Shown here: positions 1 to 13,492 of the stretch, piece by piece
Layout: each line of letters begins with the position of its first letter
Numbering within the stretch: the first letter of the stretch is position 1
Assembly: GCA_026708055.1 (NCBI GenBank)
Contig: JAPOVS010000021.1
Coordinates: 10,451 to 74,450 of the forward strand
Length of the DNA: 64,000 bases
Direction: 5' to 3'
From: a bacterium
GTDB taxonomy: Bacteria > Actinomycetota > Acidimicrobiia > Acidimicrobiales > CATQHL01
Notes under the pieces: generated by a model
Told to the model about the DNA's origin: nothing
Databases searched by the model: none
The model's input: the letters and a program-made list of their open reading frames with translations, nothing else
Translations under genes and position numbers: made by a program

Positions 1-1186
1 CGGTCAGAACTCCCGACATCCAGCGACGCATGTCGTCGAGAATCGGACCGCCATGGGTATCCAGCAACTCGTCAGGAAGCAATGCGATCGCTGCGGCCGT
101 CGCTGCTTCATCAGGGCGGCGACCGAGGAATCGACTGTATGCATCGAGTTCGTCGGTGCACTCCTCGGCCAAGTCCTTCAGTTTGTTGATTGGACCGATG
201 ACCGATGTCACGTCGGGAATCTCGTCGAGAGTGCACGACACCGTGCCACCGAAACCACCCGATGCTGGCCGGTAGGAAAACTCGAGATTCTTCGCGGGCC
301 GCCGCACCTTGATGCCGTCGCCGAATCGAGTCCGATATCGCAATAGGAACAGCTGATCAAATTGAGGCTGACAGCGCATTGCCGCGGTCCGCAAAGGAAC
401 GTATGGGTGGTGGCGTAGGTAGCTGAGTGCCCACTCTGCGGGGATCCGCTGCCCCTCACCCACAAGCCTTCCGATGCCGATTTGAAGCGCGAGGGACACC
501 TCCCAACGGTTCTCCTCGGGGTCCCACGCGACCGGCTCGAGGTCGGCGTTGACAAGACACAATGCTTCAATGAAGTCGACCAATTCGCCTGCGTAACCTG
601 CGAACGAGTAGTTGTCGCCGTAGATCGCGAGGAGGCGTCTGATCTCGGCGACGAGAACCGGGACTTCGGGGTTGTCCAAGTCTGATCCCAGGTCGACCAG
701 AAGTCGTCGCTCGAGGCCGTACAAGAACAGGAACACGTAACCGATGTAGGCGGACTCGTCCCGGCGACCGTTGATCAGCCAGATCAGGTATGCAGCACGG
801 GCGCGCTTGTCCAGACGATCGTACGACGGCCAGTAGCCCATCGTGCTCCCTGCCCAGTCGGGACGCTTCCAGTTAACGGGAAACCGGGGATCGATCAGGC
901 ACGGCTCGACTTGGGATTGGTCCGCCGATCGAGCACCACTGCCCACATATACCATCCCACCCGCAACTGGGCGGCCACCGACGATGATGCTCCCGCCGGC
1001 CGGAACCCACGTCGCCAAGCCCCTCGTCGGGCGCACAGGCGACGATGCGGGTCGTGTCGTCGCCTGTTGCCGAGAGGGGGAGTCGCTGTGCGCGGTCCGC
1101 GCCGAGGCCGGAACCGACGGAGTCGAGAGCGGTGGCCGGCCGTGATGTGAAGCCCGTCTTCTGCCGAATAGCTTGCCCAGGCCCAT
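1..1186 (-). CDS. TerB N-terminal domain-containing protein (TerB-N/TerB-C type); 3' end lies beyond the left edge
   Basis: Hand-translated open minus-strand frame, absent from the ORF track because it has no stop in the window. ATG at 1186 (alt 1222), upstream stop at 1241-1243. Contains WVPAGGSIIVGGRPVAGGMVYVGSG..EPCLIDPRFPV..MGYWPSYDRLDKRARAAYLIWL..YIGYVFLFLYGLERRLL, which I associate with TerB_N. Confidence 0.65.
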   Translation of the reverse strand, partial: MGLGKLFGRRRASHHGRPPLSTPSVPASARTAHSDSPSRQQATTRPASSPVRPTRGLATWVPAGGSIIVGGRPVAGGMVYVGSGARSADQSQVEPCLIDPRFPVNWKRPDWAGSTMGYWPSYDRLDKRARAAYLIWLINGRRDESAYIGYVFLFLYGLERRLLVDLGSDLDNPEVPVLVAEIRRLLAIYGDNYSFAGYAGELVDFIEALCLVNADLEPVAWDPEENRWEVSLALQIGIGRLVGEGQRIPAEWALSYLRHHPYVPLRTAAMRCQPQFDQLFLLRYRTRFGDGIKVRRPAKNLEFSYRPASGGFGGTVSCTLDEIPDVTSVIGPINKLKDLAEECTDELDAYSRFLGRRPDEAATAAAIALLPDELLDTHGGPILDDMRRWMSGVLT

Positions 1187-1377
1187 CAGACTCCTATCTC
1201 TCACGCCCTTCCACGGCGCCATCGCCGCCACGCGGTCGCCTCAGCAGCTCGGATTCGGCAGCGTGTCTTCTTCGTCGGACCGAATACTTCTAACACGCCC
1301 AAGACTTCGTCGCGTAACCTCCTGCGATTCCGGTCTGTCCGAGAGGACCCCAGACCTATTCTTCAGAACGTCGCGCC

Positions 1378-2268
1378 TCATGGTGCACGCCGCGCCGAGT
1401 TAGCACCCGTCGACTTCAGGTGCGCGCGACCAGGAAGCTGCGGAGGTGGTCGGTCAGGGTCTCTGGCTGGTCGATGGGGATGGTCGATGGGGATGAGGGT
1501 GTAGCTGTCGTCGATCCAGGCGAGTTGGGTGTTGCCGAAGTGGTCGGCGAGTCGTTGGGCGTGGGTGGGGGGCATGAGCTTGTCTTCTCGTGCCCAGATG
1601 ATGAGGACCGGGCCGGCGAAGCTGCGCTGCTGGTCGGCCCAGGAGAGCAACTGCTGGGGTTCGGGGACGGTGCGGAGGTACTTGGCGAGGTCGCGGCGGA
1701 CCTTGGGGTTGTGGCGCAGCGGACCGATCCAGGTCCCGAACAGGTCCTCGGGAACCCGCTGTTCGGACAGGGCGCCGAAGACCACGGGGAGATGGCGGAT
1801 CCAGCGCCGGCGCAACAACTGGGCGACCAGGAAGGTGCCCCCGGGCAGCGCCGCGGTGGCGCACAGCAGCCGGCCCGGCGCCCCGGGCGGGTAGTTGTCG
1901 AAGGCCTCACAGGAGACCAGGACCAAGTTGGCGACACGATCCGAGCCGCCGGGGCTGATGAGGAGCGGCGCGCCGCCCCAGTCGTTGCAGACCAGCGTGA
2001 CCCGCTGCAGGTCCAGTGCGGCGAGGAACTCGGCGAGGAGGGTGGCGATCGCCGGCAGGGACAGGTCGGCGCCGTCGGGCATCGGCGCGCTGTGCGCGCC
2101 GAACGGCAACTCCGGGACGACGCAGCGGTAGCGATCCCCCAGGCCCTCGACGACGGCGTCCCACAGGGAGCCACCCATCAACACCCCGTGCAGCAACACC
2201 ACCACCGGCCCATTGCCGCCGCTGTCGGAATGCATGAGGCCGGCGGATGTGGGGCCCTGAAGCTGCAT
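1378..2268 (-). CDS. alpha/beta hydrolase (Asp-nucleophile NDWGG type); 3' end frameshifted by a 13-bp tandem duplication
   Basis: ATG at 2268 (MQLQGPT..) inside track ORF 1378..2457. Motifs VVVLLHG and LVCNDWGG. The expected C-terminus IPIDQPETLTDHLRSFLVART* (stop 1416) is in another frame, seen in ORF 1416..2174. Confidence 0.85.
   Translation of the reverse strand: MQLQGPTSAGLMHSDSGGNGPVVVLLHGVLMGGSLWDAVVEGLGDRYRCVVPELPFGAHSAPMPDGADLSLPAIATLLAEFLAALDLQRVTLVCNDWGGAPLLISPGGSDRVANLVLVSCEAFDNYPPGAPGRLLCATAALPGGTFLVAQLLRRRWIRHLPVVFGALSEQRVPEDLFGTWIGPLRHNPKVRRDLAKYLRTVPEPQQLLSWADQQRSFAGPVLIIWAREDKLMPPTHAQRLADHFGNTQLAWIDDSYTLIPIDHPHRPARDPDRPPPQLPGRAHLKSTGANSARRAP
1468..1493. repeat. perfect 13-bp tandem duplication (tggtcgatgggga x2) inside the hydrolase gene
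   Basis: Read directly. On the coding strand it is ATCCCCATCGACC x2. Removing one copy restores ..DDSYTLIPIDQPETLTDHLRSFLVART*. Confidence 0.95.
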
Positions 2269-2399
2269 CCCCAGACCTCCTCGCCGGTGAGGGTCAAATC
2301 GGCAGATCGTCGACGCCGAGTCGCGGGGATCACGGTACCGGGGTCCGCCTCTGGCAGGTGCAGGTGTCCACGTCGACCTGGAATCGGGTGCAAAGGCCC

Positions 2400-2433
2400 A
2401 AAAAGAATGGGACCCCGTGCGTTCCGGGGTCCC
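2400..2433 (-). terminator. intrinsic terminator downstream of the DUF3800 gene
   Basis: Perfect 9-bp stem GGGACCCCG / CGGGGTCCC with a 7-nt loop. On the minus strand it is followed by ATTCTTTTTGGG. Confidence 0.8.
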
Positions 2434-2538
2434 GTTGCCGCGGTATTTCGGCTGCATTCGGCTGTCGCCTACTAGCCGAACCGACAGGCATCCCCCACGA
2501 TAGGCGCTTGGGCCTATGGCCGCAACGATCGCGCCCGC

Positions 2539-3249
2539 TCAGAACAGGACGATCTCATTGGTGTAGCGGCGGCCGCTGTGGGTGGTCGCGTTGGTGTTGT
2601 TCGGCAGCGTGCGCACTGCGGCCAGCCTGGAGCCGAGGACGCCGAGGCGGCGATCGCCCTCGACTACCCGTCGCCTGATGCCCGCTACCAAGTCGGCGAC
2701 TTGGATCGCCTGAGTCGTGAGAGAGCTTCCGTAGTAGACGCTGGGGTGCAGCGGCAGCCGCCGCGAGAGCACGAAGCTCGCCACGCACTAGCTGACGTGC
2801 GCGTCGAGTCCGTAGCCGGACCAGTCCGAGACGATGAGGCCTGTCTCGCCGTGGTGGGCACACTCAACTGCGAAGTGCTCCACGAGGGCTTGCATCTGTA
2901 GCGGCGCCGTCGTCTCCAGAGTCATGGGGTGATGCATCCGCTTCTTGTTGATGCTCACCGTGTAGACGGTGCAACTCAGCAGTCGGAGGATTTGCAGCGT
3001 CTCATCCACAAGATCGCGATTCTTGCGACGCTTCCAGGGGTTCGGCCTGATCGTCTCTGTCGCTTTGACCTCCCACTTTGTCGGATCGCCACGCGACGCG
3101 AAGAAGCGCGCCTTGACACCCGCGAACTTGCGGCTCAGCGCCGGGGCGTTCGCCGCCGGGATCGAGAAGCCGCCGATCACGACCGCGCCCGAGCTGTCAC
3201 GAAGGGCGGGCTTGCCCGAATCGTCTAGGAACAGCACACGGGCACTCAT
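2539..3249 (-). pseudogene. DUF3800 family protein interrupted by one in-frame TAG
   Basis: Track ORFs 2788..3249 and 2539..2784 share one frame, separated only by TAG (2788-2790) plus one codon. N-terminus VLFLDDSGKP and downstream QVADLVAG fit DUF3800. ATG at 3249 has no clear SD. Confidence 0.7.
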
Positions 3250-3487
3250 GAGCGCTGCACGTTACGGGCTCACGGTGACAGTGCCAGCGCTGGGTGTGCC
3301 CGGATCTCGGACCACTGCGCGCGGGCCTGGCGGTGGGGTTCGGTGGCTGCTGCTTCGTCCAGGACATCGAGGCGCATCCTGTCCGAAGCCGCCCGCTCGG
3401 CGATCACGTCGGGAAGGTCCTACCAGGCATCTCGACGACGGCCGTAACGGCGGGTCCCCGCACTCGGCTAGACCGATGCCTGACTCT

Positions 3488-4996
3488 TCAGGTGACTCGC
3501 GCAAGGGTTGGCTCGAGGTCAGGATCGGCCGATCGGAGCTTTCGGCGCCAGCAGGATCGCTTCGAGGGAGTCGACGCGTCTGGGGGCAGCGTCAGGGCGA
3601 AGGCTCGCCGAACGGAGAAGTCGCCAAGGTCGCACGCGTATTCGACGGCGCGTGCAGAGCGATGGGCCTCGGAGGAGCCCCAAGCCTTGGCCGCCCAAGC
3701 CCGAAGCGGGGCATGGCGTCGGAGACTGCTGTCGGTAGCGAGATCCAGCAGGCGGTTGCCATGCTCTTTGCCCAACCGAAGTTGGCTGGCAACTCGACAG
3801 AGGTGGAGCTCGCCTGCGGCGGATCGCGCCGTAGGGCTCGCCGTCGCCTGGTCAACGAGCCAGTCTTGATCAAGCTCCTGACGATTGTGGGGATGGCCAA
3901 CGACTGCCGAGAGGTAGTGACCCACGCTGAGCGGTATTTCTTGTAGCAACTGCGGTTGCTCATAGAGGATCGGTAGCGCGAGCGGACTCTGCGCAGATCT
4001 GAGCGAACCCAAATGGAACTTGACGAGGGTCAAGTCCGGTGTGTCTCGCTGGAGTTCGTCCCGAAGTTCGCCGGCAGCTCTCTGCGGTGGTCGGAACCCC
4101 GCGCCGGGTGAAGTCAGATAGGCGATCTGCCCGTGCTGGATGATGTGCTCGGCAGCTGCGCTGCCCTTCGGATGAACCTCCACCTTCGAGGCGTTGACTT
4201 CAAGTCCGAGATCTGACGCCAACGCGGCGTAGACCTCGAGAACCTCCGGCCACTCCGTCTCGGCTCCGAGAAACATCCAACTGTCGTCCGTGTACCGGAT
4301 GTGGCCTCGGACCCGGCAGGAGATCGCCGTGTCAAGCTCCATCAGGACGATGTTCCCTAGCAACCCGGACGCCTCGGGCCCGACGGGCAGACCACCTGGC
4401 GCGCCCATGGGCTCGAGGTCACGCAATAGATCACCGATGAGGGTGACGGCGCCCTGCGGCGAACCCGCCTGGCGCAGAGCATCCATGACGACCTCGGGTT
4501 CAACCGAGGGGTAGTAGTTCCTCAGGTCGGCAACGGCCATCGCATTGCAACCCGCCGCTGCGAGTAGCTCCCGTGCGCGCTCGCGCCGCAGCCCGAAAGC
4601 CACTCGCACGTCCTGCACGGACCACGCCGGCGGATCGTCCGCAAGCCGATAGCTGAACACGTCGGGGCCAAGCGCCGCTTCGACCGCGAGCGCAACACGT
4701 CCGACAACGATCCGGAGATGGAGATCGTCGTACGGGTTGAGCCACGCCATCTTGCGGACCTCGCCCTTGCCGCTCTTCGGCAGTGGGAACGTGTGGGCGA
4801 CGGACGGGCAGCGCCCCTCCTGTGAGCGGCTGATCAGGCGCTGACGCACCAACTCGGGAGCCGCAATGAAGTCGGCCCATCCGTCAACGTCCGGCAGATC
4901 CCGCCTGCCGACCCAGGGAGCGCCCGCCCGCAAGTTGACTGAGACTTCGTCCAACGTCGGCGGGTGGCCGCCGTCGTGGGGACATAGGGAGCCCAC
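3488..4996 (-). CDS. stand-alone reverse transcriptase (UG/Abi/DRT-like) with ~200-aa helical C-terminal extension
   Basis: RT motifs KMAWLNPYDD, ADLRNYYPSV (A), GLPVGPEASGLLGN (B), YTDD (C) and LEVNASK (D/E). GTG start preceded by AAAGGAGGAATC. No maturase/En domain and no retron VTG motif noticed. Confidence 0.9.
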   Translation of the reverse strand: MGSLCPHDGGHPPTLDEVSVNLRAGAPWVGRRDLPDVDGWADFIAAPELVRQRLISRSQEGRCPSVAHTFPLPKSGKGEVRKMAWLNPYDDLHLRIVVGRVALAVEAALGPDVFSYRLADDPPAWSVQDVRVAFGLRRERARELLAAAGCNAMAVADLRNYYPSVEPEVVMDALRQAGSPQGAVTLIGDLLRDLEPMGAPGGLPVGPEASGLLGNIVLMELDTAISCRVRGHIRYTDDSWMFLGAETEWPEVLEVYAALASDLGLEVNASKVEVHPKGSAAAEHIIQHGQIAYLTSPGAGFRPPQRAAGELRDELQRDTPDLTLVKFHLGSLRSAQSPLALPILYEQPQLLQEIPLSVGHYLSAVVGHPHNRQELDQDWLVDQATASPTARSAAGELHLCRVASQLRLGKEHGNRLLDLATDSSLRRHAPLRAWAAKAWGSSEAHRSARAVEYACDLGDFSVRRAFALTLPPDASTPSKRSCWRRKLRSADPDLEPTLARVT

Positions 4997-5021
4997 GATT
5001 CCTCCTTTGCGCCAGCGAGCG

Positions 5022-6140
5022 CTAGAAGAGCCGGTCGGCTAGGACGGTGCCGGGGCGTTCGGCTTCGAGACCGAGTTTCCACATGATGTATGTGGCGGTC
5101 GCCCGCCTCGTGGGCATGCGTGTGACTACTTCGTTGTCTGCCATGCAGATGCCTTGCCAATCGGGGTTCGTCTTGCGCCAGTCGATGTCGGCGAGTCCCT
5201 TGAGGGAATCGGTCCAGTGCCCGTTGGCGTGGTCATGCGCGGCGCGGGCTGCGGCGCCGGCGAAGCCGAGAGCCCACAGTGACAGCGCGTAGGACGACAC
5301 GTATACCTGGCGTGCCTCCTGCGCCTTCATGTCACCGTCGAGGATGTGGCACCAGGGTGCGACAAGATCGGTGAGGCGGGTCCAGTAGTCGACCGCCTGG
5401 GTTGTCAGCTCGCTTACTTGCTCTGCGGGGAGCTTCTCGGATGGGTTACCGAGGAGTTGAAGGTTGGCCTGTTGCAGACCCGAGAGGGTGGCGAACTTCG
5501 GCGAGCGCACCGACAGCGACACGCGCTCTTTGTCGATGCGGTCCTCGAACAGTGGGACTCCCTCGAGGCACGCCATGGTGATGCGGTTGATCGGCAGTCG
5601 GTGGTCGAAGAGGATGTCGAGAGACTTCGACGTCTTGCGCACGGTGCGGTTGAGGTCAGAGAAGATCTGCTGGCTGCGCTCCAGGCCGCCGTCGGGCAGC
5701 ACGACCACCGAGATGGTGTCCTCCGCGAGCTTCGGGTCCTGTCGCAGCGCCTCGGAGATGCCCGCCACGCGGTGCTGGCCGTCGTTGATCACATACTTCG
5801 CCTCCAACGGCAGGACCAGGTTGCCGATGTCGGCTCCCTCCTCGACGGGACGGAAATCGACCTCGTCGGAGTCAACCGAGACGGTGATCGAGGAGAAGAT
5901 GTAGTCATCGTGGTCCAGCACGTACTCGGCGATCTCGGGGACCCGCTTGGCGATCAGCGTTCTCTGGGAACGGTTCTCTGGCGTCAGCTCGAGCATCTTG
6001 TCGGGGTCGAAGGTGAAGAGCTTCGTGACTGCCCCGAACGGGAGCGTCGCCGTGTAGTAGTTGGTCGTGCCCATCCGGCCTCGGGTCGCGGGGACCTGAA
6101 AGGTGGGCCGGAGGCGGCTGCTAAAGCTTGCTGATGTCAT
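5022..6140 (-). CDS. DGQHR domain-containing protein (DndB-like, ParB/Srx fold)
   Basis: Literal motif YVINDGQHRVAG, plus QRTLIAKRVPEIAEYV and FSDLNRTVRK as in DndB-like proteins. SD GAGGAGA lies upstream of ATG 6140. Stop is 25 bp before the RT start. Confidence 0.88.
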   Translation of the reverse strand: MTSASFSSRLRPTFQVPATRGRMGTTNYYTATLPFGAVTKLFTFDPDKMLELTPENRSQRTLIAKRVPEIAEYVLDHDDYIFSSITVSVDSDEVDFRPVEEGADIGNLVLPLEAKYVINDGQHRVAGISEALRQDPKLAEDTISVVVLPDGGLERSQQIFSDLNRTVRKTSKSLDILFDHRLPINRITMACLEGVPLFEDRIDKERVSLSVRSPKFATLSGLQQANLQLLGNPSEKLPAEQVSELTTQAVDYWTRLTDLVAPWCHILDGDMKAQEARQVYVSSYALSLWALGFAGAAARAAHDHANGHWTDSLKGLADIDWRKTNPDWQGICMADNEVVTRMPTRRATATYIMWKLGLEAERPGTVLADRLF

Positions 6141-6202
6141 CGGATCTCCTCTGAGCTTGGTCAGTCAACGGCCGAGCAGCGATTTCGCCACCCGGCACCG
6201 GT

Positions 6203-6231
6203 ACTCTACCAGATACGTCGCACTATTGCAA
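6203..6231 (-). promoter_or_regulatory. sigma-A type promoter of the DGQHR-RT unit
   Basis: Minus strand reads TTGCAA-N17-TGG-TAGAGT (-35, 17-nt spacer, extended -10) in a locally AT-rich stretch. Predicted 5' UTR is about 55 nt. Confidence 0.6.
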
Positions 6232-6262
6232 CTAGTACGTCTCAAAGAGTCGCAAGTACGTC
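6214..6262 (-). promoter_or_regulatory. three phased direct repeats GACGTA(C/T) (plus-strand TACGTC at 6214, 6236, 6257)
   Basis: Hexamers spaced 22 and 21 bp. One sits in the promoter spacer and two lie just upstream of -35. Operator-like. Confidence 0.5.
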
Positions 6263-6461
6263 GACTTGGATGAGCAATTGGGACATCAGACTGCTCCTGC
6301 CTCTCCGCATGAGAGATTCATGATCGGACTGGATCACTGCACTCCGATGCAGCACCCGGCGTTACCTCGGACGGCAGAGGAGGACCTCACACCATCACCG
6401 GCACCAAATCGGAGCGACTTCGGCGCATTGCTCAGCGGATCTCAAGTGCGCTAGAGGGCAT

Positions 6462-6539
6462 CAGGGAGAGATCGGCGCCGTCGGGCATCGGCGTGGTGTG
6501 CGCGCCGAACGGCAGTTCCGGGACGACGCAGCGGTAGCG
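6462..6539 (-). pseudogene. 78-bp remnant of the alpha/beta-hydrolase gene (fragment A1)
   Basis: Aligns by eye to 2060-2133 of the full copy (..RYRCVVPELPFGAHTTPMPDGADLSL..). Its variant bases match fragment A3. Confidence 0.85.
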
Positions 6540-6576
6540 GCATCTCTGCGTGCCGCGACCGTGAGGACGACGTTCG

Positions 6577-6813
6577 TCAGGGACGGTCGGCTTCGAGGGT
6601 GCGGGTGACGGCTCGGCGGATCCATGACGACACCGAGCGGTCGTCGGCCTCGGCGGCGGCTCTGACCTGCTCGAGGACATCGGGCGGGAACCGCACCGGG
6701 ACCGGATCGGTCATCGGCTCCTTGCGTCGCCGGGGCGGGCCCTGGGGAATCTGGTTCTCGGACCTGCCGTAGAACTCGTGCTCCTCGGCGGGGGTCATCG
6801 TGGAGTCGTTCAT
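6577..6813 (-). CDS. ribbon-helix-helix (CopG/Arc-type) antitoxin-like protein
   Basis: ATG 6813 preceded by GGAGGA. C-terminal VPVRFPPDVLEQVRAAAEADDRSVSSWIRRAV is a typical RHH strand-helix-helix pattern. ATGA overlap with the upstream gene. Confidence 0.7.
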   Translation of the reverse strand: MNDSTMTPAEEHEFYGRSENQIPQGPPRRRKEPMTDPVPVRFPPDVLEQVRAAAEADDRSVSSWIRRAVTRTLEADRP

Positions 6814-7110
6814 CGGTCCTCCAAGTAGCGGGTGGCGAGGTGCGCTGTGGCGACGTAGCAACCGATCGGCCGACACTTCGTCGGGTCGCCGGAATCCGGG
6901 GGTGCCAGGGGACGACGAGAACAGTGCCGCTGACTTGCGCAACCATCAGCCAGTGGGCCGGCGGTTTGGCCGGATAGAACAGCGGGTCATTGCGCCACAC
7001 GTCGTGGATGTCGTCGATTCCGAGCGCTTCATGCTTGAACAGGTGCGGTGCCTGCCTGGTGATCTCGAACGGGTCGTCCTCATCGAGTAGGTCTATGTCG
7101 AACAGGCCAT
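6810..7110 (-). pseudogene. toxin-like small gene upstream of the RHH gene, frameshifted (family not named)
   Basis: ..DPFEITRQAPHLFKHEALGIDDIHDVWRNDPLFYPAKPPAHWLMVAQVSGTVLVVP continues in another frame as LAPPDSGDPTKCRPIGCYVATAHLATRYLEDR*. The break is at a G4 run (6908-6911). The start is also unclear: ATG 7110 hits a stop after 5 codons. Confidence 0.5.
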
Positions 7111-7130
7111 CCTCCCACGAAAGTGTAATA

Positions 7131-7151
7131 CAGACGAATACGAATTGTCTG
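7131..7151 (-). promoter_or_regulatory. palindromic operator-like site upstream of the decayed TA pair
   Basis: CAGAC-GAATACGAATT-GTCTG with an internal ACGAAT x2 tandem, just upstream of the SD/start region. Confidence 0.35.
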
Positions 7152-7283
7152 CGGCCGGCGAACTCGGGTCCTGCTCATCTCGGCAAGACGATCGACGAAC
7201 CCGCGGAACCGCGGGACTCCTGAGCGCCTCGGAAACCGATCACCGCAACTGCCGGCACCATGGCGAGGCCCCTCGCCGAAACC

Positions 7284-7343
7284 ATAAGCCCCGCCATTTC
7301 CGGCTAGCCAGAAAGGCGGGGAGGAATGTCGACATCTTACCGG
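7284..7343 (-). repeat. 60-bp hairpin repeat, copy 1
   Basis: ataagCCCCGCCatttccggctagccagaaaGGCGGGGaggaatgtcgacatcttaccgg. Near-identical to 8591-8650. Confidence 0.9.
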
Positions 7344-7457
7344 CGTTAGCCGGCGCGCACATGGCTACTGAGGTCGGCTGCCGAGTCGGCAGGCAGCGGA
7401 ACAGCCGTACGCCGCAGCGCCCGGAGCCGCGGCGGGAGTGAGGATAGGGAGGCAGAC

Positions 7458-7739
7458 ATGGCCAGGGGCAGGACCATCCACTTCCTCATCACGTATGACC
7501 GCTCGAATAGGCAACTCCTCAATCTGGAGCGGCTCCACAACGGCAAGAAGGCCGTCGACACCTACGGCGAGCGGGAGCGCGAGTACGCGGACCGGCCGCA
7601 GATCGAGGTGGTGTTGCTCGGCGCCGGTTCCGAGGTTGCCATCCGCGTGACTCGTCCCGTCTACTCCCGGACGGAACCGTCGTCGACGGAGCGGATCGCC
7701 GAACTACCGGGCATCTCCGCCGAGGCCGCCGTCCGCTGA
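7458..7739 (+). CDS. small hypothetical protein
   Basis: 93-aa ORF. GGGAGG lies 6 nt before the ATG. Composition looks protein-like (..ITYDRSNRQLLNLERL..PQIEVVLLGAGSE..). Family not recognised. Confidence 0.5.
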   Translation: MARGRTIHFLITYDRSNRQLLNLERLHNGKKAVDTYGEREREYADRPQIEVVLLGAGSEVAIRVTRPVYSRTEPSSTERIAELPGISAEAAVR

Positions 7740-7767
7740 GACGCCTCCGCGGCATCTCCATCGCCCC

Positions 7768-8216
7768 GCTGGGCAGCGCGGCGATGGGGCACAGCAGCCG
7801 GCCCGGCGCCCCGGGCGGGTAGTTGTCGAAGGCCTCACAGGAGACCAGGACCAAGTAGGCGACACGATCGGACCCGCCGGGGCTGATGACGAGCTGCGCG
7901 CCGCCCCAGTCGTTGCAGACCAGCGTGTCGTTGCCGACCAGCGTGACCTGGTGCAGGTCCAGTTCGGTGAGGAACTCGGCGAGGATGGTGACGATCGCGG
8001 CAGGGACAGGTCGGTGCCGTCGGGCATCGGCGCGCTGTTCGCGCCGAACGGCAGCTCCGGGACGACGCAGCGGTAGCGATTCCGCAGGCCCTCGGTGACG
8101 GTGTCCCACAGGGAGCCACCCATCAACGCCCCGTGCAGCAACACCACCACCGGCCCGTCGCCGCCGGAGTAGGAATACATGAGGCCGGCTGACGTGGGGC
8201 CCTGAAGCTGCATCAC
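7768..8216 (-). pseudogene. alpha/beta-hydrolase 5' fragment A2 (N-terminal ~145 codons; frameshift plus 18-bp tandem duplication)
   Basis: MMQLQGPTSAGLMYSYSGGDGPVVVLLHG.. aligns to 1840-2268. One C is missing relative to the full copy near 7997. Tandem duplication gtcgttgc(a/c)gaccagcgt lies at 7909-7944. Confidence 0.85.
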
Positions 8217-8261
8217 GATTTCCTGGCCGTCACGAGTCAGCGCCGAACTCCACGGTGGCGA

Positions 8262-8567
8262 TCAGGACGCGAGATAGTTCGTGTCGTCCCGCACATATCC
8301 GAATCGTCGTTCGTCCAGTTGGTGGTTCCAGAGGCGGTGAGTCGGGACGCGCAGCGGCCACTGCCGAGAGGCGGACCCCACCCACGTGGCCGTCTCGACT
8401 CGCCTACCGGCGTCGAGGGCTACCTCGATTGCCGGAACCAGGTCGGTATCGGCCGAGACGATCACGGCGACGTCGTAGCGGTCGTCCCGGGCGCCGAGAG
8501 CGATGTCGATGGCCATGAGCACGTGGTAGGCGTTCTGGTAGTCAAGGAAGACCGCGATGCGCGTCAC
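8262..8567 (-). CDS. NYN domain protein, apparently internally deleted
   Basis: RIAVFLDYQNAYHV is joined directly to AIDIALGARDDRYDVAVIVSADTDLVPAIE. The usual ~90 aa between these NYN motifs are absent. Confidence 0.55.
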   Translation of the reverse strand: MTRIAVFLDYQNAYHVLMAIDIALGARDDRYDVAVIVSADTDLVPAIEVALDAGRRVETATWVGSASRQWPLRVPTHRLWNHQLDERRFGYVRDDTNYLAS

Positions 8568-8590
8568 CAGTCCATCACCTCACGAAAAAG

Positions 8591-8650
8591 ATAAGCCCCG
8601 CCATTCCCGGCTAGCCGGAAAGGCGGGGAGGAATGTCAGCATCTTACCGG
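8591..8650 (-). repeat. 60-bp hairpin repeat, copy 2 (terminator-like on the minus strand)
   Basis: Same element as 7284-7343. The inner palindrome ccggctagccgg is perfect. On the minus strand the stem is followed by CTTATCTTTTTCG. Confidence 0.9.
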
Positions 8651-8727
8651 TTTTTCGTGGACGCGCAAGTAGCTGCTGGGTGCGCCGTCTCATCAGGATT
8701 GCGACCGCGGACGCCTGGAGTCGTCGC

Positions 8728-9164
8728 GACGAGGACCGGGCCGGCGAAGCTGCGCTGCTGGTCGGCCCAGGCGAGCAGCTGGTGAGGTTTGGGGACGGTG
8801 CGTAGGTAGGTCGCGGCGGACCTTGGCGTTGTGGCGCAGCGGACCGATCCAGCTCCCGAACAGGTCCTCGGGAACCCGCTGTTTGAACAGGGCGCCGAAG
8901 AGGGGAGGGCTCGTTGCAGACCAGCGTGACCTCATGTGGGTCCAGTTCGGTGAGGAACTCGGCGATGAGGGTGGCGATCGCCGGCAGGGACAGGTCGGCA
9001 CCATCGGGCATCGGCGTGGTGTGCGCGCCGAACGGCAACTCCGGGACGACGCAGCGGCAGCGGTCCCGCAGGCCCTCGATGACGGTGTTCCACAGGGAGT
9101 CACCCATCAACACCCCGTGCAGCAACACCACCACCGGCCCATCGCCGCCGGTGTCGGAGTACAT
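8728..9164 (-). pseudogene. alpha/beta-hydrolase fragment A3 (internal ~200-bp deletion plus small indels)
   Basis: Aligns to ~1598-1775 and ~1982-2268 of the full copy. Homology continues upstream of the start codon to about 9225. Confidence 0.85.
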
Positions 9165-9228
9165 GAGGCTGGCGGACGTGGGCCCGCGAGCTGCATCCGC
9201 GGACCTCCTTGCCGGTGGGCGTCGTGCC

Positions 9229-10341
9229 CTATTGGGGATGCTGTTCGCGTAGCCAGTCCCGGGCGGCGTGGTGGGCGAGAGTGATGCGCCCCCAGCCTGC
9301 GGGAAGGATCATGCCGGCGCGTAGTAGTCGCTGCCGGTAGACGCCGGCGTAGCTGGTGGTGGCGCCGAGGCGGTCGGCGATGTCGGTGAGCTTCGACTCA
9401 GCGTCGTCCTGAGCCATCGCCAGTAGGAATCGTCGGTCCACGTCCGAGAGCGTTCTCCAGGTGGGGGCAAAGACCATCCGGCCAATACGCCGCTGAGCCT
9501 CGGCGATTCCTGCTGTGACGTGCTCGTCGGTGATGACCGGGGAGTTGATGTCCGCTTGCCAACTATGGAACCCGACGAGCTGGACCATGAATGCGTATCC
9601 AGAGGTTGCGGCGGCGGCGCGTTCGAGAGCTGTGGAGTCGATGGAGCGACCGTGCTGGCTGATCGGTTCGGCGATGGCGCGCCGGGTCGCCTGCGGGTTC
9701 AGTCGGTCGATGTCGTAGCGAGAGCAGCGTTGCAGGAACGTGATGGCGTCGTCGGAGAGCAGGGTGTCCTCGATCTGGGGAAGGGCGGCGCCGATGAACG
9801 CGACCGGCCGCTCCTCGCGGCGCGACACATGCTGGAGGACCGAGCCGAACTCGCGGATCTCGTCGACGTCGCCACTCTGCATCTCGTCGACGGTGATCAA
9901 CAAGCCCGTCTTTTGCTCAGCGAGAGCGTCGCCGAGATCGGACAGGGCTCCCCGGAGGTCGTACTCGGCTTGGGGTGTTGGGACGGTCGCGAGTCCGACG
10001 CCGAACCCTGCGGCGGTCGCGCTGCTGAGGCGGCGCTTGGGTTCCGCCGGCCCGATTTCTTCGAGGAGATCGGATGCCGCGCGGGTGAGACGATCGGAGA
10101 GTCCCACCGATGAGGCGCTGTCGGACCGCGCGAGCCATCCCCGGCTCCGGGCGAGGTCCTCGACGGCATTGAGCATCACCGTCTTGCCGGCGCCCCGCAC
10201 GCCGATGAACAGGGCTGTGTAGTCCGGATGGGTCGGACCGGCGGCGAGGGCGTCGCCCACGCTGTCGAGAATGGCGTCGCGCCCGGCAAGCACCGGTGGC
10301 GAGGTTCCGAAGCTCGGCGAGAAGGGGTTGCGGACGGCCAA
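9229..10341 (-). CDS. AAA-type ATP-binding protein with C-terminal winged-helix DNA-binding region
   Basis: Walker A GVRGAGKT, Walker B LLITVDEM, C-terminal SDVDRRFLLAMAQ..LTDIADRLG..YRQRLL. Start placed at TTG 10341 after GAGGAGAA, because the longer track ORF runs into an AT-rich promoter-like region. Confidence 0.7.
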   Translation of the reverse strand: MAVRNPFSPSFGTSPPVLAGRDAILDSVGDALAAGPTHPDYTALFIGVRGAGKTVMLNAVEDLARSRGWLARSDSASSVGLSDRLTRAASDLLEEIGPAEPKRRLSSATAAGFGVGLATVPTPQAEYDLRGALSDLGDALAEQKTGLLITVDEMQSGDVDEIREFGSVLQHVSRREERPVAFIGAALPQIEDTLLSDDAITFLQRCSRYDIDRLNPQATRRAIAEPISQHGRSIDSTALERAAAATSGYAFMVQLVGFHSWQADINSPVITDEHVTAGIAEAQRRIGRMVFAPTWRTLSDVDRRFLLAMAQDDAESKLTDIADRLGATTSYAGVYRQRLLRAGMILPAGWGRITLAHHAARDWLREQHPQ

Positions 10342-10391
10342 TCGGTTCTCCTCGCTGCTTGCGGCGCAACACGAGTCTAGCCGTTTGTGGG

Positions 10392-10436
10392 CTTTATGAT
10401 CTTTGTTTCCTTTATTAGTTTTGAAATCTTTAGTGT
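10392..10436. repeat. five phased 9-bp units (CTTTnnnnn) in the AT-rich region upstream of the ATPase gene
   Basis: CTTT/TTTT starts at 10392, 10401, 10410, 10419 and 10428, an exact 9-bp period. Confidence 0.7.
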
Positions 10437-10658
10437 TCGGGCCTCTACTGGGGGTTATATCGGATGGTGCCGACGCGGGCGGTGAGAGGATGTCGCCGCC
10501 GCCGTGGGTTTGCCAGTGTTCGACGTTCTCAGGGTCAGGCTTGCGGGTGAGGATCGCTCGGAGCGCTTCCTCCGGCGTCATGCCGTCAGGTGGGGCGATG
10601 GGCTCGTCTCGTGGTGGCGTCTAGGGTGCGGGATCCCCCTGACGAGAGGTGGACGCAG

Positions 10659-11057
10659 ATGCGGATCACATTGACCAACGTCATCGTCGACGACCAGGCC
10701 AAGGCCGTCGCCTTCTACACCGAGGTCCTCGGATTCCAGAAGTATCACGACGTACCCGTCGGGGAGTATTCGTGGCTCACCGTGGTCTCCCCGGAGCAGC
10801 CTGACGGGCCGGAACTGCTGCTCGAGCCCGCAGCGCACCCGGCCGCCAGGGCATCCCGCGACGCTCTCACCGCCGACGGGGTCCCATCTGCACAGTTCAC
10901 CGTTGACGACGTTCATGCCGAGCACGCGCGGCTGCTTGCTGCCGGCGTGGAGTTCGCTCAGCCGCCCACCGATGTCGGCACCGTTGTGATGGCGGTCTTC
11001 GATGACACCTGCGGGAACCTGATCCAGATCGTGACCCCGGCTCCAAGACCTGCATAG
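10659..11057 (+). CDS. VOC family (glyoxalase/bleomycin-resistance fold) protein
   Basis: MRITLTNVIVDDQAKAVAFYTEVLGF..TVVMAVFDDTCGNLIQI. ATG 10659 lies after GAGAGGTGGA. Confidence 0.8.
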   Translation: MRITLTNVIVDDQAKAVAFYTEVLGFQKYHDVPVGEYSWLTVVSPEQPDGPELLLEPAAHPAARASRDALTADGVPSAQFTVDDVHAEHARLLAAGVEFAQPPTDVGTVVMAVFDDTCGNLIQIVTPAPRPA

Positions 11058-11092
11058 CGGCGCGGCCGGAGTTCACCGTGGTGGGACGTCGC

Positions 11093-11308
11093 TCAATCGT
11101 CCGTCCACGGGTCGAGGAGATCGACGCCCACATCGGTGAAGTCCCCGGTGTTGCGCGTTGCCACCGCCATGCCGCGGGATCGGGCTATGGCTGCAATCTG
11201 GGCATCCGCCAGGGCGATCGGGTGACCGGCGGCACGGCGATCTGCGGCGATCGCCGCATACGCACGAGCCGCATCGCTGTCGAACGGCAGGACGCGACCG
11301 GCGAATCC
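11093..11308 (-). pseudogene. C-terminal remnant of a PIN-domain VapC toxin
   Basis: Hand translation gives VLPFDSDAARAYAAIAADRRAAGHPIALADAQIAAIARSRGMAVATRNTGDFTDVGVDLLDPW. The frame is closed by TGA at 11309-11311. No N-terminal half and no start codon. Confidence 0.6.
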
Positions 11309-11359
11309 TCACGAATGAGGGTCCCTCTGTCGGCCTCGATGGGCCAGACTTGAGGTCTC

Positions 11360-12091
11360 ATGAGTGCCGAGCCCGTCACGGATCGCATCTATCTTCGGGA
11401 CGCCGATTGCCGGACGTTCGATGCCGTTGTCGTGGCGGTGGAGGACGGCGGGCGGGTGGCGCTGGATGCGACGGCGTTCTATGCCACCGGGGGCGGACAG
11501 CCGCATGACACCGGGACGCTGGCCTGGGACGGGGGGTCGGCGGCGGTGACCGACGTGCGGGGGCATGGGGCGGTGGTGTGGCACACGCTGGAGGGGGACG
11601 TGCCGGCGACCGGCGCTTCAGTGCGGGGGACTCTGGACTGGGAGCGGCGCTATGCGCTGATGCGCACGCACACCGCGCTGCACATCCTGTGCGGGGTGAT
11701 CTACAACACCTGGGGGGCGGCGGTGACCGGGGGGAACATGGAGCCGCTGCGGGCGCGGATGGACTTCGAGTTCGGGCCGCTGCCGGAGGGGTTCGGCGCC
11801 GAGGTGGCCGAGCTGGTGAACGCCGAGATCGCCGCCGACCGCCCGGTGGAAGTGTCGTTCTGGCCGCGGGCCGCCGCGCTGTCCGACGCGGACCTGATCC
11901 GCACCAAGGTGAACCTGATCCCCGAGTCGGTGACCGAGATCCGGGTGGTGGACATCGTGGGCCTGGACCGCCAGGCCGACGGCGGCACCCACGTGGCCTC
12001 CACCGCCGAGGTGGGCCGCTTCGAGGTCACCAGGACCGAGTCCAAGGGCAAGGCCAACAAGCGCCTGCGCATCGCCCTCAGCGACGCCTGA
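11360..12091 (+). CDS. AlaX-type alanyl-tRNA editing protein
   Basis: FYATGGGQPHDTG, RTHTALHIL and DRQADGGTHV match the Ala/Thr-tRNA synthetase editing-domain His/Cys motifs. Confidence 0.8.
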   Translation: MSAEPVTDRIYLRDADCRTFDAVVVAVEDGGRVALDATAFYATGGGQPHDTGTLAWDGGSAAVTDVRGHGAVVWHTLEGDVPATGASVRGTLDWERRYALMRTHTALHILCGVIYNTWGAAVTGGNMEPLRARMDFEFGPLPEGFGAEVAELVNAEIAADRPVEVSFWPRAAALSDADLIRTKVNLIPESVTEIRVVDIVGLDRQADGGTHVASTAEVGRFEVTRTESKGKANKRLRIALSDA

Positions 12092-12148: not shown

Positions 12149-12240
12149 CTGCTCGGATTACGAACGCAAAGGTGCTCGGATTCCGAAAGAAATAGTGCTC
12201 GAATTGCGAAAGTTCAGTGCTAGGGTTGTGCGGTGATGGA
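12149..12240 (+). repeat. about four degenerate tandem 22-23-bp repeats ((C/G)TGCTCGGATTxCGAA..)
   Basis: Units start at 12149, 12172, 12195 and 12217. Each contains a near-palindrome (TCGGATTCCGA, TCGAATTGCGA). The array abuts or overlaps the start of the next gene. Confidence 0.75.
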
Positions 12241-13492
12241 TCGTGTCGTGCGTCGTGTGCTGGGGCTGGTGCTGGCTCGGCTTGCTGAGGAGCCGGTGGT
12301 TGCGCTGCAGGGGCCGCGCACGGTCGGTAAGTCGACGCTGCTGGGTGAGGTCGCCGCCCGGCACGGCGTCGCGGTAATCGACCTCGATGAGCCGGCGGTG
12401 CGTGACGCGGTGAGGGCGGATCCGGGAACCTTCACAGCAGGTGCGCCGCCCGTGTGCATCGACGAGTTCCAGAAGGCTCCCGTGGTGCTCGACGCCATCA
12501 AGGCCGAACTCAACAGGCGCCTGGGGCCCGGCCGCTTCGTCCTCTGTGGCTCGACCCGATTCGACGCGCTGCCCCGTGCCGCGCAGGCCCTCACGGGACG
12601 TATCCACGTCATCGATCTGCTGCCGTTCTCCCAGGGAGAGATGGACGGTCGCGTGGAGGGCTTCCTTGCCGTGGCGATGACCACGCCCGACCTGCTGGTG
12701 AGTGCGCGTCGCTCGGCGACGAGCCGCGACGATTACATCGAACGGATCTGCCGCGGCGGGCTGCCGCTGGCCGTCGCCCGGCAGGCCGAGTCCCGCAATC
12801 GCTGGATCGATGACTACGTACGCGTCTCTCTGGCCCGCGACGTGACGGAGTTGGCGAGAATCCGCCAGGGGGCGCTGCTGCCGGCGCTGCTGCGGCGCCT
12901 CGCCGCGCAGACGGGGCAGGTCCTCAACATGGCCACTGCCGGCAGGGGTGCGGGTCTCGACCCCCGCACTGCCGAGACTTACACCAAGCTGCTGGAGGAT
13001 CTGTTCCTCGTGCGGCGTCTGGGAGCGTGGGGGCGCACTCTGCGGGCGCGCACCGCCGCGACCCCGAAGATTCACGTTCTCGACAGCGGTGTGGCGGCGC
13101 GGCTGCTGGGTCTGAGCCCGGCGAGGTTGGGGCGGCTCGATCCGGCTGCGCTGAGCGAGTTCGGGCACCTGCTGGAGACCTTCGTCGTGGGCGAACTCCT
13201 CAAGCAGGCGTCCTGGACCGGCGACATCGCCGGCGTCGGCCATTGGCGGACCCACGACGGCCACGAGGTCGATCTCGTCATCGAGCACCACGACGGCTCG
13301 GTCACCGCGTTCGAGGTCAAGTCCGCCGCACGGGTCACCACGCGGGACCTCCGGGGCCTGCGAACCCTCCGGGATGCCCTAGGGGAGGGATTCAACAGCG
13401 GGATCGTCCTGCACACCGGCGAACTCACCTACCGACTCGACGACCGGATCATCGTCGCGCCCATCGACCTGCTGTGGAGCGAGCACCGCTGA
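12233..13492 (+). CDS. ATP-binding protein (AAA_14 + DUF4143 family)
   Basis: LQGPRTVGKSTL, CIDEFQKAP and the C-terminal HWRTHDGHEVDLVIE..AFEVK restriction-endonuclease-like end typical of DUF4143 proteins. Confidence 0.8.
   Translation: MMDRVVRRVLGLVLARLAEEPVVALQGPRTVGKSTLLGEVAARHGVAVIDLDEPAVRDAVRADPGTFTAGAPPVCIDEFQKAPVVLDAIKAELNRRLGPGRFVLCGSTRFDALPRAAQALTGRIHVIDLLPFSQGEMDGRVEGFLAVAMTTPDLLVSARRSATSRDDYIERICRGGLPLAVARQAESRNRWIDDYVRVSLARDVTELARIRQGALLPALLRRLAAQTGQVLNMATAGRGAGLDPRTAETYTKLLEDLFLVRRLGAWGRTLRARTAATPKIHVLDSGVAARLLGLSPARLGRLDPAALSEFGHLLETFVVGELLKQASWTGDIAGVGHWRTHDGHEVDLVIEHHDGSVTAFEVKSAARVTTRDLRGLRTLRDALGEGFNSGIVLHTGELTYRLDDRIIVAPIDLLWSEHR

Follow-up and report, generated by a model that had tools for sequence, protein, structure and literature searches.

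The question raised by this locus is whether three co-directional genes, coding for a DndB-like protein, a reverse transcriptase (RT) and a DUF3800 protein, constitute a self-contained defence module, as was proposed in a sequence-only reading of the same DNA. In the 64,000-nucleotide stretch analysed (hereafter, the window), the three minus-strand genes were confirmed at 5022-6140 (DndB), 3488-4996 (RT) and 2539-3249 (DUF3800, interrupted by a TAG codon), with a conserved promoter ahead of the set (6203-6231) and a strong terminator at its end (2400-2433); genes, motifs, promoter and terminator all lie where that reading had placed them. The new three-gene system itself finds little support, since its parts assort independently, and we consider it likely that the locus is a recombinational mosaic in which three unrelated, independent defence-island genes have been brought side by side. 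The lower GC content claimed for the island is real but modest (0.64-0.67 vs 0.69-0.73 outside), and it is plainer at the third codon position (GC3), with values of 0.74-0.88 for island genes vs 0.92-0.96 for the housekeeping genes located past 17 kb; among the island genes GC3 is lowest in the RT (0.74), and it is 0.85 in DndB.

The RT gene (GTG start) codes for an intact protein of 502 aa that belongs to the stand-alone defence type and, within Class 1 of the UG/Abi enzymes, is a divergent relative of UG23; it is composed of an RT domain (residues ~1-290) and an alpha-repeat domain (~304-501). It contains the motifs ADLRNYYPSV, GLPVGPEASGLLGN, YTDD and LEVNASK, scores 28.7 bits against Pfam RVT_1 (marginally under the gathering score of 29.6) and reaches at most 92 bits with the PADLOC UG/DRT models, the best of them, at 92, being RT_UG23, which is also the top model for every tested member of the RT family. 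This family comprises proteins of ~500 aa, mainly from Acidimicrobiales, and a relative with 26% identity is a bona fide UG23 (320 bits). The AF2 model (pLDDT 90.8) has an all-helical C-terminal region of ~200 aa, and over its full length the fold matches, by Foldseek, DRT6 (TM 0.64), followed by DRT4, Abi-P2, AbiK and AbiA. The assignment to the defence-type UG/Abi RTs with a helical C-terminal extension is thus upheld by PADLOC, Foldseek and the structural model, as is, by profile and structure searches, the lack of a maturase/endonuclease domain and of retron features. The catalytic residues are invariant in 103/103 family members, all family-invariant residues checked (catalytic set included) are intact in the window RT, and its dN/dS against relatives (0.24-0.40) indicates purifying selection. 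Within this RT a single internal loop is disordered (residues 290-300); it contains Tyr293, which is an invariant Tyr only inside the clade; because the wider family (n=103) has Tyr in 39 members and Ser in 30 at this position, this residue is simply a candidate for priming. Two reports (PMC12783706; PMC13174585) describe Class 1 enzymes as protein-primed and untemplated, with DRT4 and DRT6 as single-gene systems.

The neighbourhood of the RT was surveyed in ~24 independent loci (designated by L numbers), a small and phylogenetically clumped sample. No neighbour is common to the whole RT family; partners differ from clade to clade (AbiEi-like, HmaA, nrdJ, DndB), the RT flanks show no conservation when divergent loci are compared, and most RTs have their own AT-rich upstream motif. 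Homology between loci begins 11 nt ahead of the RT start and stops past an AbiEi remnant. As part of the mosaic reading, the RT is likely to be an autonomous single-gene module.

Downstream of the RT, the 238 nt that precede DUF3800 had been described as a gap; the spacing is correct, but the interval is not empty, as it holds the 3' end (~50 codons, frameshifted; 3270-3425, minus strand) of an AbiEi/DUF6088-like wHTH gene, identified by alignment to intact genes. Intact 204-aa counterparts are found in L007 (11617-12228), L006 (18204-18812) and L009 (6580-7188), the Pfam matches of the remnant to DUF6088 and AbiEi_4 are weak, and in L036 an intact homologue is paired with AbiEii. The interval thus represents this remnant, which moves together with the RT block (3239-5007), and not an ncRNA. 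The DUF3800 gene that follows (236 codons) is a stand-alone gene with a Pfam score of 34 bits vs a cut-off of 21 and no PADLOC match. The single in-frame TAG that had been reported was confirmed at 2788-2790, where a CAG-to-TAG change substitutes a Gln kept in 6 of the 9 aligned homologues; these are mostly 236 aa long, and the four closest (88-92% identity) carry Q at this site. Its recurrent neighbour is a hydrolase gene (in the window, a full-length alpha/beta-hydrolase at 1381-2268, minus strand; Pfam Abhydrolase_1 9e-19) and not the RT: in L007 the DUF3800 C-terminus, the terminator and the hydrolase block are found again, at 6 kb from the RT, and in L006 the DUF3800 gene is missing while its first 10 nt are retained. 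The intrinsic terminator (minus strand; GGGACCCCG-loop-CGGGGTCCC and then a T-run) was called at 2433-2409 plus the T-run, with 9 pairs, 8 of them G-C, and belongs to the DUF3800/hydrolase-upstream block. Rather than a member of an RT module, DUF3800 is thus likely, within the same mosaic reading, to be a stand-alone gene of a common kind, the copy here having been inactivated recently.

The DndB gene codes for an intact, solo DndB-like DGQHR (ParB-fold) protein of 372 aa containing INDGQHR, whose earlier identification was confirmed by profile searches (Pfam DndB, 4e-91; PADLOC DndB, 2.3e-91). It scores 185.7 bits with the DGQHR model TIGR03187, over the cut-off, and 290.5 bits with the DndB equivalog TIGR03233, under its cut-off of 328; its dN/dS against relatives (0.14-0.22) also indicates purifying selection. 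A PADLOC scan of the ten large proteins of the window detected no Dnd, Ssp or Dpd partner. As the sequence-only reading had supposed, DndB appears uncatalogued as an RT partner, no mention of it having been found in Mestre et al. 2022.

The alternative that survives best, although we regard it as doubtful, is a genuine two-gene system of DndB and the RT, restricted to a clade, in which DndB would repress or sense, and would free a potentially toxic effector upon infection, the held effector being the RT here and NYN or SLFN/AlbA_2 elsewhere. DndB is in fact the commonest single neighbour of the RT family, above random genome-wide adjacency, and the 5 of ~24 independent loci in which it adjoins the RT represent two independent juxtaposition events, one co-directional, restricted to a shallow clade (the window, L007 and L022) with DndB-less RTs nested within it, and the other head-to-head (L032 and L033). 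Against this, DndB is missing from the remaining loci (~19 of 24), including L005 and L036, whose RTs are the closest to that of the window, and no RT was found near DndB in an unbiased sample taken from the DndB side (0/5 loci), so that a DGQHR neighbour is largely not kept among RT homologues. The two families also differ in size (at least 832 clusters for DndB vs 70 for the RT). The neighbours of DndB differ by locus, being RT, NYN, SLFN/AlbA_2 or none: NYN (L034, L040/41) or SLFN_AlbA_2 (L039) lies 40-97 nt after DndB, which could mean a modular regulator-effector logic and leaves a residual possibility that DndB regulates swappable effectors, whereas DndB is alone amid housekeeping genes in L035 and lacks an effector in L038, and DndB, RT, NYN and SLFN/AlbA_2 genes are all common island cargo.

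The tight coupling that had been proposed between both genes is exact for the window, where the spacer measures 25 nt (4997-5021, minus strand) and holds the RT ribosome-binding site AAAGGAGG (5001-5008), but not for its relatives, where the distance is ~235-245 nt. At the position of the window junction, L007 and L022 have a ~210-nt spacer, which speaks against a two-gene system, and the RT-proximal upstream sequence common to L005, L007 and L022 is absent from the window. The boundaries of the blastn blocks fall at 5007/5008, within the spacer, which, judged from these alignments, is the junction (~5007/5008) of two independently assorting DNA blocks. The mosaic blocks are delimited by 5' fragments of the hydrolase gene, repeated across the island according to repeat maps (6462-6539, 7771-8229 and 8728-9223). 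The terminator scan called none between DndB and the RT, and this interval retains no RT promoter region, both of which favour the two-gene alternative.

The DndB promoter (minus strand) consists of a -35 box TTGCAA (6226-6231), a 17-nt spacer and a -10 box TAGAGT (6203-6208), and was missed by a consensus scan because only 8 of 12 consensus positions match; 8/10 aligned loci keep this -35 box and a -10 box of the form TAnnnT upstream of DndB, the exceptions being the head-to-head L032 and L033. Three phased direct repeats GACGTA(C/T) (6214-6262, minus strand; at 6257-6262, 6236-6241 and 6214-6219), spaced by 21-22 nt, flank and overlap the -35 box and the spacer. Phased GACGTA occurs in 1-4 copies in 10/10 DndB promoters vs 0.028 expected, and in none of the 19 regions upstream of RTs. 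The array is a putative DndB operator, to which DndB may bind by analogy with that of S. enterica, an autorepressor whose own promoter has the TACG-N10-CGTA sites that it binds (PMC4507180). An operator-like array on a promoter shared by DndB and the RT would suit a two-gene system; its absence upstream of RTs that stand alone argues against it. The DndB 5' UTR contains, in addition, a conserved hairpin (6171-6196, minus strand; GCCGGGTGGCG-aaat-CGCTGCTCGGC) that aligns among DndB loci with compatible changes.

Under the mosaic reading, the mechanism of the RT most likely resembles that of its closest solved relatives. By analogy with DRT6, DRT4, AbiK, Abi-P2 and AbiA, the RT would oligomerise, most likely as a hexamer, and carry out protein-primed, template-independent synthesis of ssDNA, which would be stabilised by a phage factor, resulting in toxicity and abortive infection; this activity would need neither an ncRNA nor a dedicated partner. 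DndB would be a free-standing protein of the ATP-dependent-repressor type with its own promoter bearing the phased GACGTA operator-like repeats, and it most likely autoregulates. In this genome alone, ~210 nt would have been lost, leaving the ribosome-binding site of the RT 25 nt after the DndB stop, and therefore the RT is probably co-transcribed from the DndB promoter, under its incidental control.

It is quite improbable that the stretch as a whole consists of decaying island remains, with the RT and DndB intact by chance and non-functional or unexpressed: pseudogenes and fragments lie all around (DUF3800 with its TAG, the AbiEi remnant, an NYN fragment and the hydrolase fragments), but RT and DndB both retain their full length, the RT invariant residues checked are all intact, dN/dS against relatives is 0.14-0.40, and promoter, ribosome-binding site and terminator are each present. 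That the RT comes from a retroelement, be it a retron, a group II intron or a DGR, with its associated RNA or TR/VR pair, is effectively refuted. In favour of this reading, the core palm motifs match group II and retron models weakly (25-38 bits) and hydrolase fragments are repeated close to the RT; against it, TIGR04416 gives 37.9 bits vs a cut-off of 300, the retron models stay far under their cut-offs, Rfam gave no matches on either strand, a coding remnant occupies the 3' gap, the 5' spacer measures just 25 nt, the mismatches of the hydrolase repeats show no adenine specificity, and the fold has the alpha-repeat domain typical of Class 1 UG/Abi.

Among known systems, retron type VII is composed of an RT and DUF3800 (PMC7736814), the sequence-only reading having correctly linked DUF3800 with one retron type, and the window also has a DUF3800 gene downstream of the RT, although this RT is non-retron and has no msr/msd, and the DUF3800 gene carries a nonsense mutation, comes from a family that stands alone and is not conserved as a neighbour of the RT. 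The DGQHR/ParB fold of the window DndB strongly matches the models of DndB/DptB from dndBCDE operons, and its promoter, like that of S. enterica DndB, is overlain by a CGTA-containing array; in contrast, its repeats are direct and phased rather than palindromic, it falls below the equivalog cut-off, its gene neighbours are variable and neither dndCDE nor dndFGH is nearby. UG23 (Class 1 UG/Abi; Mestre et al. 2022, PMC9226505) shares with the window RT the size (~500 aa) and an RT followed by a C-terminal HEAT-like alpha-repeat domain, but the window RT scores 92 bits vs 320 for a true member, nearly tied with Drt8/UG7 and UG32, has no NUDIX-TM or SLATT partner and belongs to a lineage largely confined to Acidimicrobiales. 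DRT6 (UG12) and DRT4 (UG15) are the best full-length structural matches (TM 0.54-0.65) and share with it the condition of single genes with no ncRNA; the catalytic YxDD of DRT4, whose D240A/D241A mutant is catalytically dead, is also present. By this analogy the window RT would act as a hexamer, priming from a Tyr and polymerising ssDNA with no template, and would cause abortive infection (PMC12783706), although sequence identity is just 12-14% and homology gives no identifiable priming residue. AbiA, AbiK and Abi-P2 have the same RT plus alpha-repeat architecture and protein priming, which the window RT may share by analogy; unlike AbiA, it has no HEPN domain, but in AbiA the priming Tyr lies in the flexible linker between RT and alphaRep, and Tyr293 is a candidate for this role in the window RT.

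The three co-directional minus-strand ORFs that the sequence-only reading had proposed as a self-contained defence system are present exactly as it described them. The first (5022-6140, minus strand) codes for a DndB-like protein of 372 aa that contains the INDGQHR motif and matches both Pfam DndB (4e-91) and the DGQHR domain model. The second (3488-4996, minus strand) codes for a reverse transcriptase (RT) of 502 aa with motifs A-E, whose GTG start lies 25 nt past the DndB stop and is preceded by AAAGGAGG. The third (2539-3249, minus strand) is a DUF3800 gene with a single in-frame TAG at 2788-2790. A terminator scan recovered the strong terminator claimed for the end of the unit (2433-2400), and the island is indeed of lower GC (GC3 of 0.74-0.88 vs. 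0.92-0.96 in the housekeeping part of the window). The suggested promoter (TTGCAA-17-TAGAGT, 6203-6231) was missed by a consensus scan (8/12 matches) and is kept upstream of DndB in 8 of 10 aligned loci. The three-gene system itself did not stand by the sequence-only reading's own standard, since DGQHR adjacency is largely not conserved among the RT homologues; DndB, RT and DUF3800 were found as one unit in no other locus compared. Judged by comparison with related loci, the locus is a mosaic whose parts assort independently: a DndB block (5008-6264), a block of the RT with a remnant of an AbiEi-like gene (3239-5007) and a third block of DUF3800 and the terminator, which sit amid repeated fragments of a hydrolase gene. 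What looked like a tight DGQHR-RT operon consists of independent island genes that became fused in one lineage, and a false lead is thereby removed.

Of ~24 RT loci, 5 have DndB next to the RT. The two genes are co-directional, with DndB immediately upstream, in the window, L007 (L021 is the same sequence) and L022 alone, and DndB is found head-to-head with the RT, in a longer form of 550-558 aa, in L032 and L033; ~19 other independent RT loci are without it. The RTs with co-directional DndB fall together in a single shallow clade of the RT tree, and nested in it, closest to the window, are the DndB-less L005 and L036. The point at which DNA homology between loci breaks off, 5007/5008, falls exactly between DndB and RT. 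The DndB-RT spacer measures ~210 nt in L007 and L022, and RT-proximal upstream sequence common to L005, L007 and L022 is absent in the window, so that the 25-nt coupling is most simply explained, from these alignments, as a window-specific deletion. A palindromic AT-rich motif (TGTAATTACA / ...TACA...GTAATTACA...), which precedes the RT start by ~25-35 nt in divergent loci whose surrounding DNA is otherwise unalignable (L004, L010, L012-L014, L016, L023 and L024), may serve the RT as a promoter or operator of its own, and is absent upstream of the window RT. Neighbour clustering identified DndB as the commonest single RT neighbour (5 loci) and no neighbour as universal, other RT clades lying beside HmaA or directly after nrdJ; maps of the lower-GC loci rest on pre-called genes, and a GC3-based caller missed genes there. 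The nrdJ arrangement belongs to a distant clade (32-35% identity; Modestobacter and metagenomes), in which the RT is directly downstream of the class II ribonucleotide reductase gene nrdJ (L019:1235-4141; L029:2117-5812, intein-containing; L026:25-312), and this synteny with a gene for dNTP supply is conserved.

The other junction of the presumed operon is a 238-nt gap between RT and DUF3800. By blastn, a 168-nt piece of it (3285-3452) recurs apart from RTs in related loci; its alignment has a codon-like conservation pattern, and the copies away from RTs form the 3' end of a 204-aa gene that is intact there and has weak DUF6088, PaaX and AbiEi_4 matches; in L036 this gene immediately precedes an AbiEii toxin gene. 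The intact gene stands 3' of the RT in L007/L021/L027 and L037, and only its last ~50 codons are left after the RT in the window (where the AbiEi-like remnant is frameshifted), L005, L006 and L036. The gap thus holds what is left of a pseudogene, the 3' end of an AbiEi/DUF6088-like gene, and is neither an ncRNA nor a regulatory spacer.

The window's DUF3800 type adjoins an RT only in the window. L007 has just a 49-aa C-terminal fragment, ~6 kb away from its RT, in a block formed by the DUF3800 C-terminus, the terminator and the hydrolase gene, and in L006 the RT block passes straight into the region upstream of the hydrolase gene, with only the first 10 nt of DUF3800 left. In one metagenomic ORF, DUF3800 is fused to the hydrolase. 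Homologues of the window DUF3800 are numerous (273 clusters, mostly of 236 aa). The window gene has no PADLOC match; its TAG stands where the closest homologues have Gln (CAG), and the remaining invariant residues are intact. The DUF3800 gene beside the closest relative of the window RT, in L036, does not speak for a tie between DUF3800 and the RT, as it is of a different DUF3800 lineage and tblastn aligns it nowhere with the window gene. The sequence-only reading was right that DUF3800 belongs to one retron type (type VII, PMC7736814), which is irrelevant to this locus.

Fragments from the 5' part of one alpha/beta-hydrolase gene, all in the same orientation, recur through the island and bound its gene blocks. 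The full gene with its upstream region occupies 1378-2522, fragments are found at 6462-6539, 7771-8229 and 8728-9223, and others occur in L006 (8 copies), L007, L009 and L022. Their breakpoints vary, so that no single att site exists, and the idea of cassettes bounded by one fixed att site within the hydrolase gene is not supported. At block junctions there is also a 73-nt direct repeat (7271-7343 and 8578-8650, 88% identical) holding a perfect-stem hairpin (CCCGCC...GGCGGG); it may act as a terminator or be REP-like. A 93-aa ORF without Pfam match (7458-7739, plus strand), which shares 76-82% DNA identity with its counterparts in L007, L009 and, in two copies, L005, is on that evidence another recurrent island block. 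Further on, two AAA_14/DUF4143 ATPase genes (12233-13489, plus strand; 15637-16932, minus strand) match the PADLOC phage-defence candidate PDC-S01 with 477 and 226 bits; a DUF488 and a PIN gene are close by, and the island thereby extends to ~17 kb. The region offers a worked example of how blocks bounded by hydrolase fragments are shuffled in Acidimicrobiales defence islands.

The DndB protein passes the DGQHR domain and Pfam DndB models and scores 290.5 bits against the TIGR03233 equivalog, below its cut-off of 328. Its family is far larger than that of the RT, with at least 832 clusters, and both genes are under purifying selection (dN/dS of 0.14-0.22 for DndB and 0.24-0.40 for the RT). No Dnd, Ssp or Dpd partners were found among the window gene calls or in a PADLOC scan of ten large window proteins, nor dndCDE/dndFGH in 8 other DndB loci. 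GACGTA(C/T) direct repeats, in 1-4 copies phased by 21-22 nt (positions -143, -122, -101 and -80), flank the -35 box of DndB in 10/10 DndB loci, vs. 0.028 expected per locus; the array lies at 6214-6262 in the window, and likewise upstream of DndB in L007, L022, L034, L035, L038, L039 and L040. It looks like a putative operator array of Dnd-less DndB. The DndB of S. enterica acts on TACG-N10-CGTA sites to repress the operon to which it belongs (PMC4507180), and a DndB-like protein binds ATP and GTP (PMC12704722). The 5' UTR of DndB contains in addition a conserved hairpin (6171-6196) with compatible substitutions across loci. In the best reading of these data, DndB would be a free-standing autoregulator whose promoter has, in the window, incidentally captured the RT. 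This large Dnd-less population, with its conserved operator-like array, makes the role of DndB outside phosphorothioation tractable.

The genes beside DndB elsewhere bear on whether it regulates what it precedes. Five unbiased look-ups from the DndB side gave no RT. DndB stands alone among housekeeping genes in L035, and has a hydrolase gene upstream and a 72-aa ORF downstream in L038. In L039 (5001-7512) a Fic gene is upstream and an SLFN/AlbA_2 gene follows co-directionally after 40 nt, and in L034 (6001-7860) and L040/L041 (5001-6860) a co-directional NYN gene follows after 97 nt; the DndB-NYN and DndB-SLFN/AlbA_2 arrangements are possible alternative DndB-effector pairs. The long DndB form (L032:6001-7677 and L033:3387-5039; P0079 and P0092) has a C-terminal extension of ~190 aa. 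That DndB and its variable downstream gene stand in a regulator-effector relation is, in our judgement, improbable. A fuller version of the same idea, which we hold to be more doubtful still, is that in Acidimicrobiales the solo DndBs, as repressors that depend on nucleotide but not on Dnd, were recruited to serve swappable effectors (UG23-like RT, NYN RNases, SLFN/AlbA_2) as regulators or sensors, and that the window RT was captured into a DndB transcription unit; infection would then de-repress the promoter with the GACGTA operators and switch on the synthesis of toxic ssDNA by the RT. Regulation of RTs by DndB in trans through GACGTA sites is rejected, as such sites are carried by 0/19 RT upstream regions.

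For the RT, protein searches gave a family of ~70 clusters, uniformly of ~502 aa and 37-85% identical, and an exhaustive profile search (E<=1e-30) gave at least 241 representatives at 50% identity, nearly all full length. The genomic loci are chiefly from Acidimicrobiales MAGs (Poriferisodalis, Spongiisocius and Aldehydirespirator) and Modestobacter; no relatives were found in the phage collection, and the plasmid collection gave only distant group II palm matches. Some genomes carry two diverged paralogues (L006 and L009 in OZ220687.1, ~20 kb apart; L005 and L008 on one contig), and in many cases one of the pair has suffered truncation or a frameshift (L006 is split, and the first 86 codons of L008 are missing). 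The window RT falls narrowly below the Pfam RVT_1 threshold and scores clearly with PADLOC UG/DRT models (RT_UG23 92 bits, Drt8 89, UG32 78), RT_UG23 being the top model in every family member tested (86-134 bits); L030, related to the window RT at 26% identity, reaches 320 bits and is a true UG23. An AlphaFold (AF2) model from the family alignment (pLDDT 90.8, pTM 0.90) has an all-helical domain at residues 304-501 (pLDDT above 90), and the full-length model best matches hexameric DRT6 in Foldseek (TM 0.64/0.65), followed by DRT4/UG15, Abi-P2, AbiK and AbiA, group II, retron and DGR RTs matching only palm and fingers. The protein has the features of Class 1 UG/Abi enzymes, palm and fingers with YxDD and the motif A Asp and a C-terminal alphaRep/HEAT-like domain, and R81, D157, G202, D222, D237, D238, K271 and R464 are unchanged in 103/103 members. 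By profile, fold and conserved residues, the RT is a new and divergent Class 1 UG/Abi enzyme, probably related to UG23. It is not a retron RT (models at 25-32 bits, far under cut-offs; no Rfam retron RNA; no upstream room), nor a group II intron RT (TIGR04416 at 37.9 bits vs. a cut-off of 300; no Rfam intron match; an alpha-repeat C-terminal domain), nor a DGR RT (nearby repeats are hydrolase fragments only, with mismatches that are not A-specific; no Avd-like gene).

Class 1 enzymes are reported to synthesize DNA without a template and Class 2 enzymes to use an ncRNA (PMC13174585). DRT4 and DRT6 are single-gene systems that form hexamers and are tyrosine-primed; their product is random ssDNA, normally cleared by host exonucleases, and a phage ssDNA-binding protein shields it, leading to toxicity and abortive infection (PMC12783706). 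By analogy with these structural relatives only, the window RT would have the same Class 1 mode of action. Nothing points to a template RNA: an E-value scan of window 1-12000 gave 0 Rfam matches, and room and conservation for one are scant, with a 5' spacer of 25 nt, a 3' gap that is a gene remnant and flanks unconserved between divergent loci. The priming residue varies among enzymes, being in AbiA a Tyr in the flexible RT-alphaRep linker (PMC12783706). In the window RT, Tyr293 is clade-invariant and lies in the sole disordered internal loop (residues 290-300). No priming tyrosine is universally conserved across the wide RT family, Tyr293 being invariant within the clade alone, and because its column is mixed there (Tyr 39/103, Ser 30/103), it is only a candidate priming residue.

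Compared with known systems, the window DndB differs from that of Dnd phosphorothioation systems in lying under the equivalog cut-off and in having no linked dndCDE. UG23 belongs to Class 1 UG/Abi, a class defined by an alpha-repeat domain C-terminal to the RT, and is reported with NUDIX-TM or SLATT partners and an inconclusive defence prediction (Mestre et al. 2022, PMC9226505). Such a partner is absent here, the window neighbours being DndB, the AbiEi remnant and DUF3800, and the NUDIX-TM/SLATT Pfam families do not appear among the called neighbours in related RT loci. These RTs define a divergent lineage, probably related to UG23, that is free of UG23's NUDIX/SLATT partners and is carried by mostly uncultured, partly sponge-associated Acidimicrobiales.
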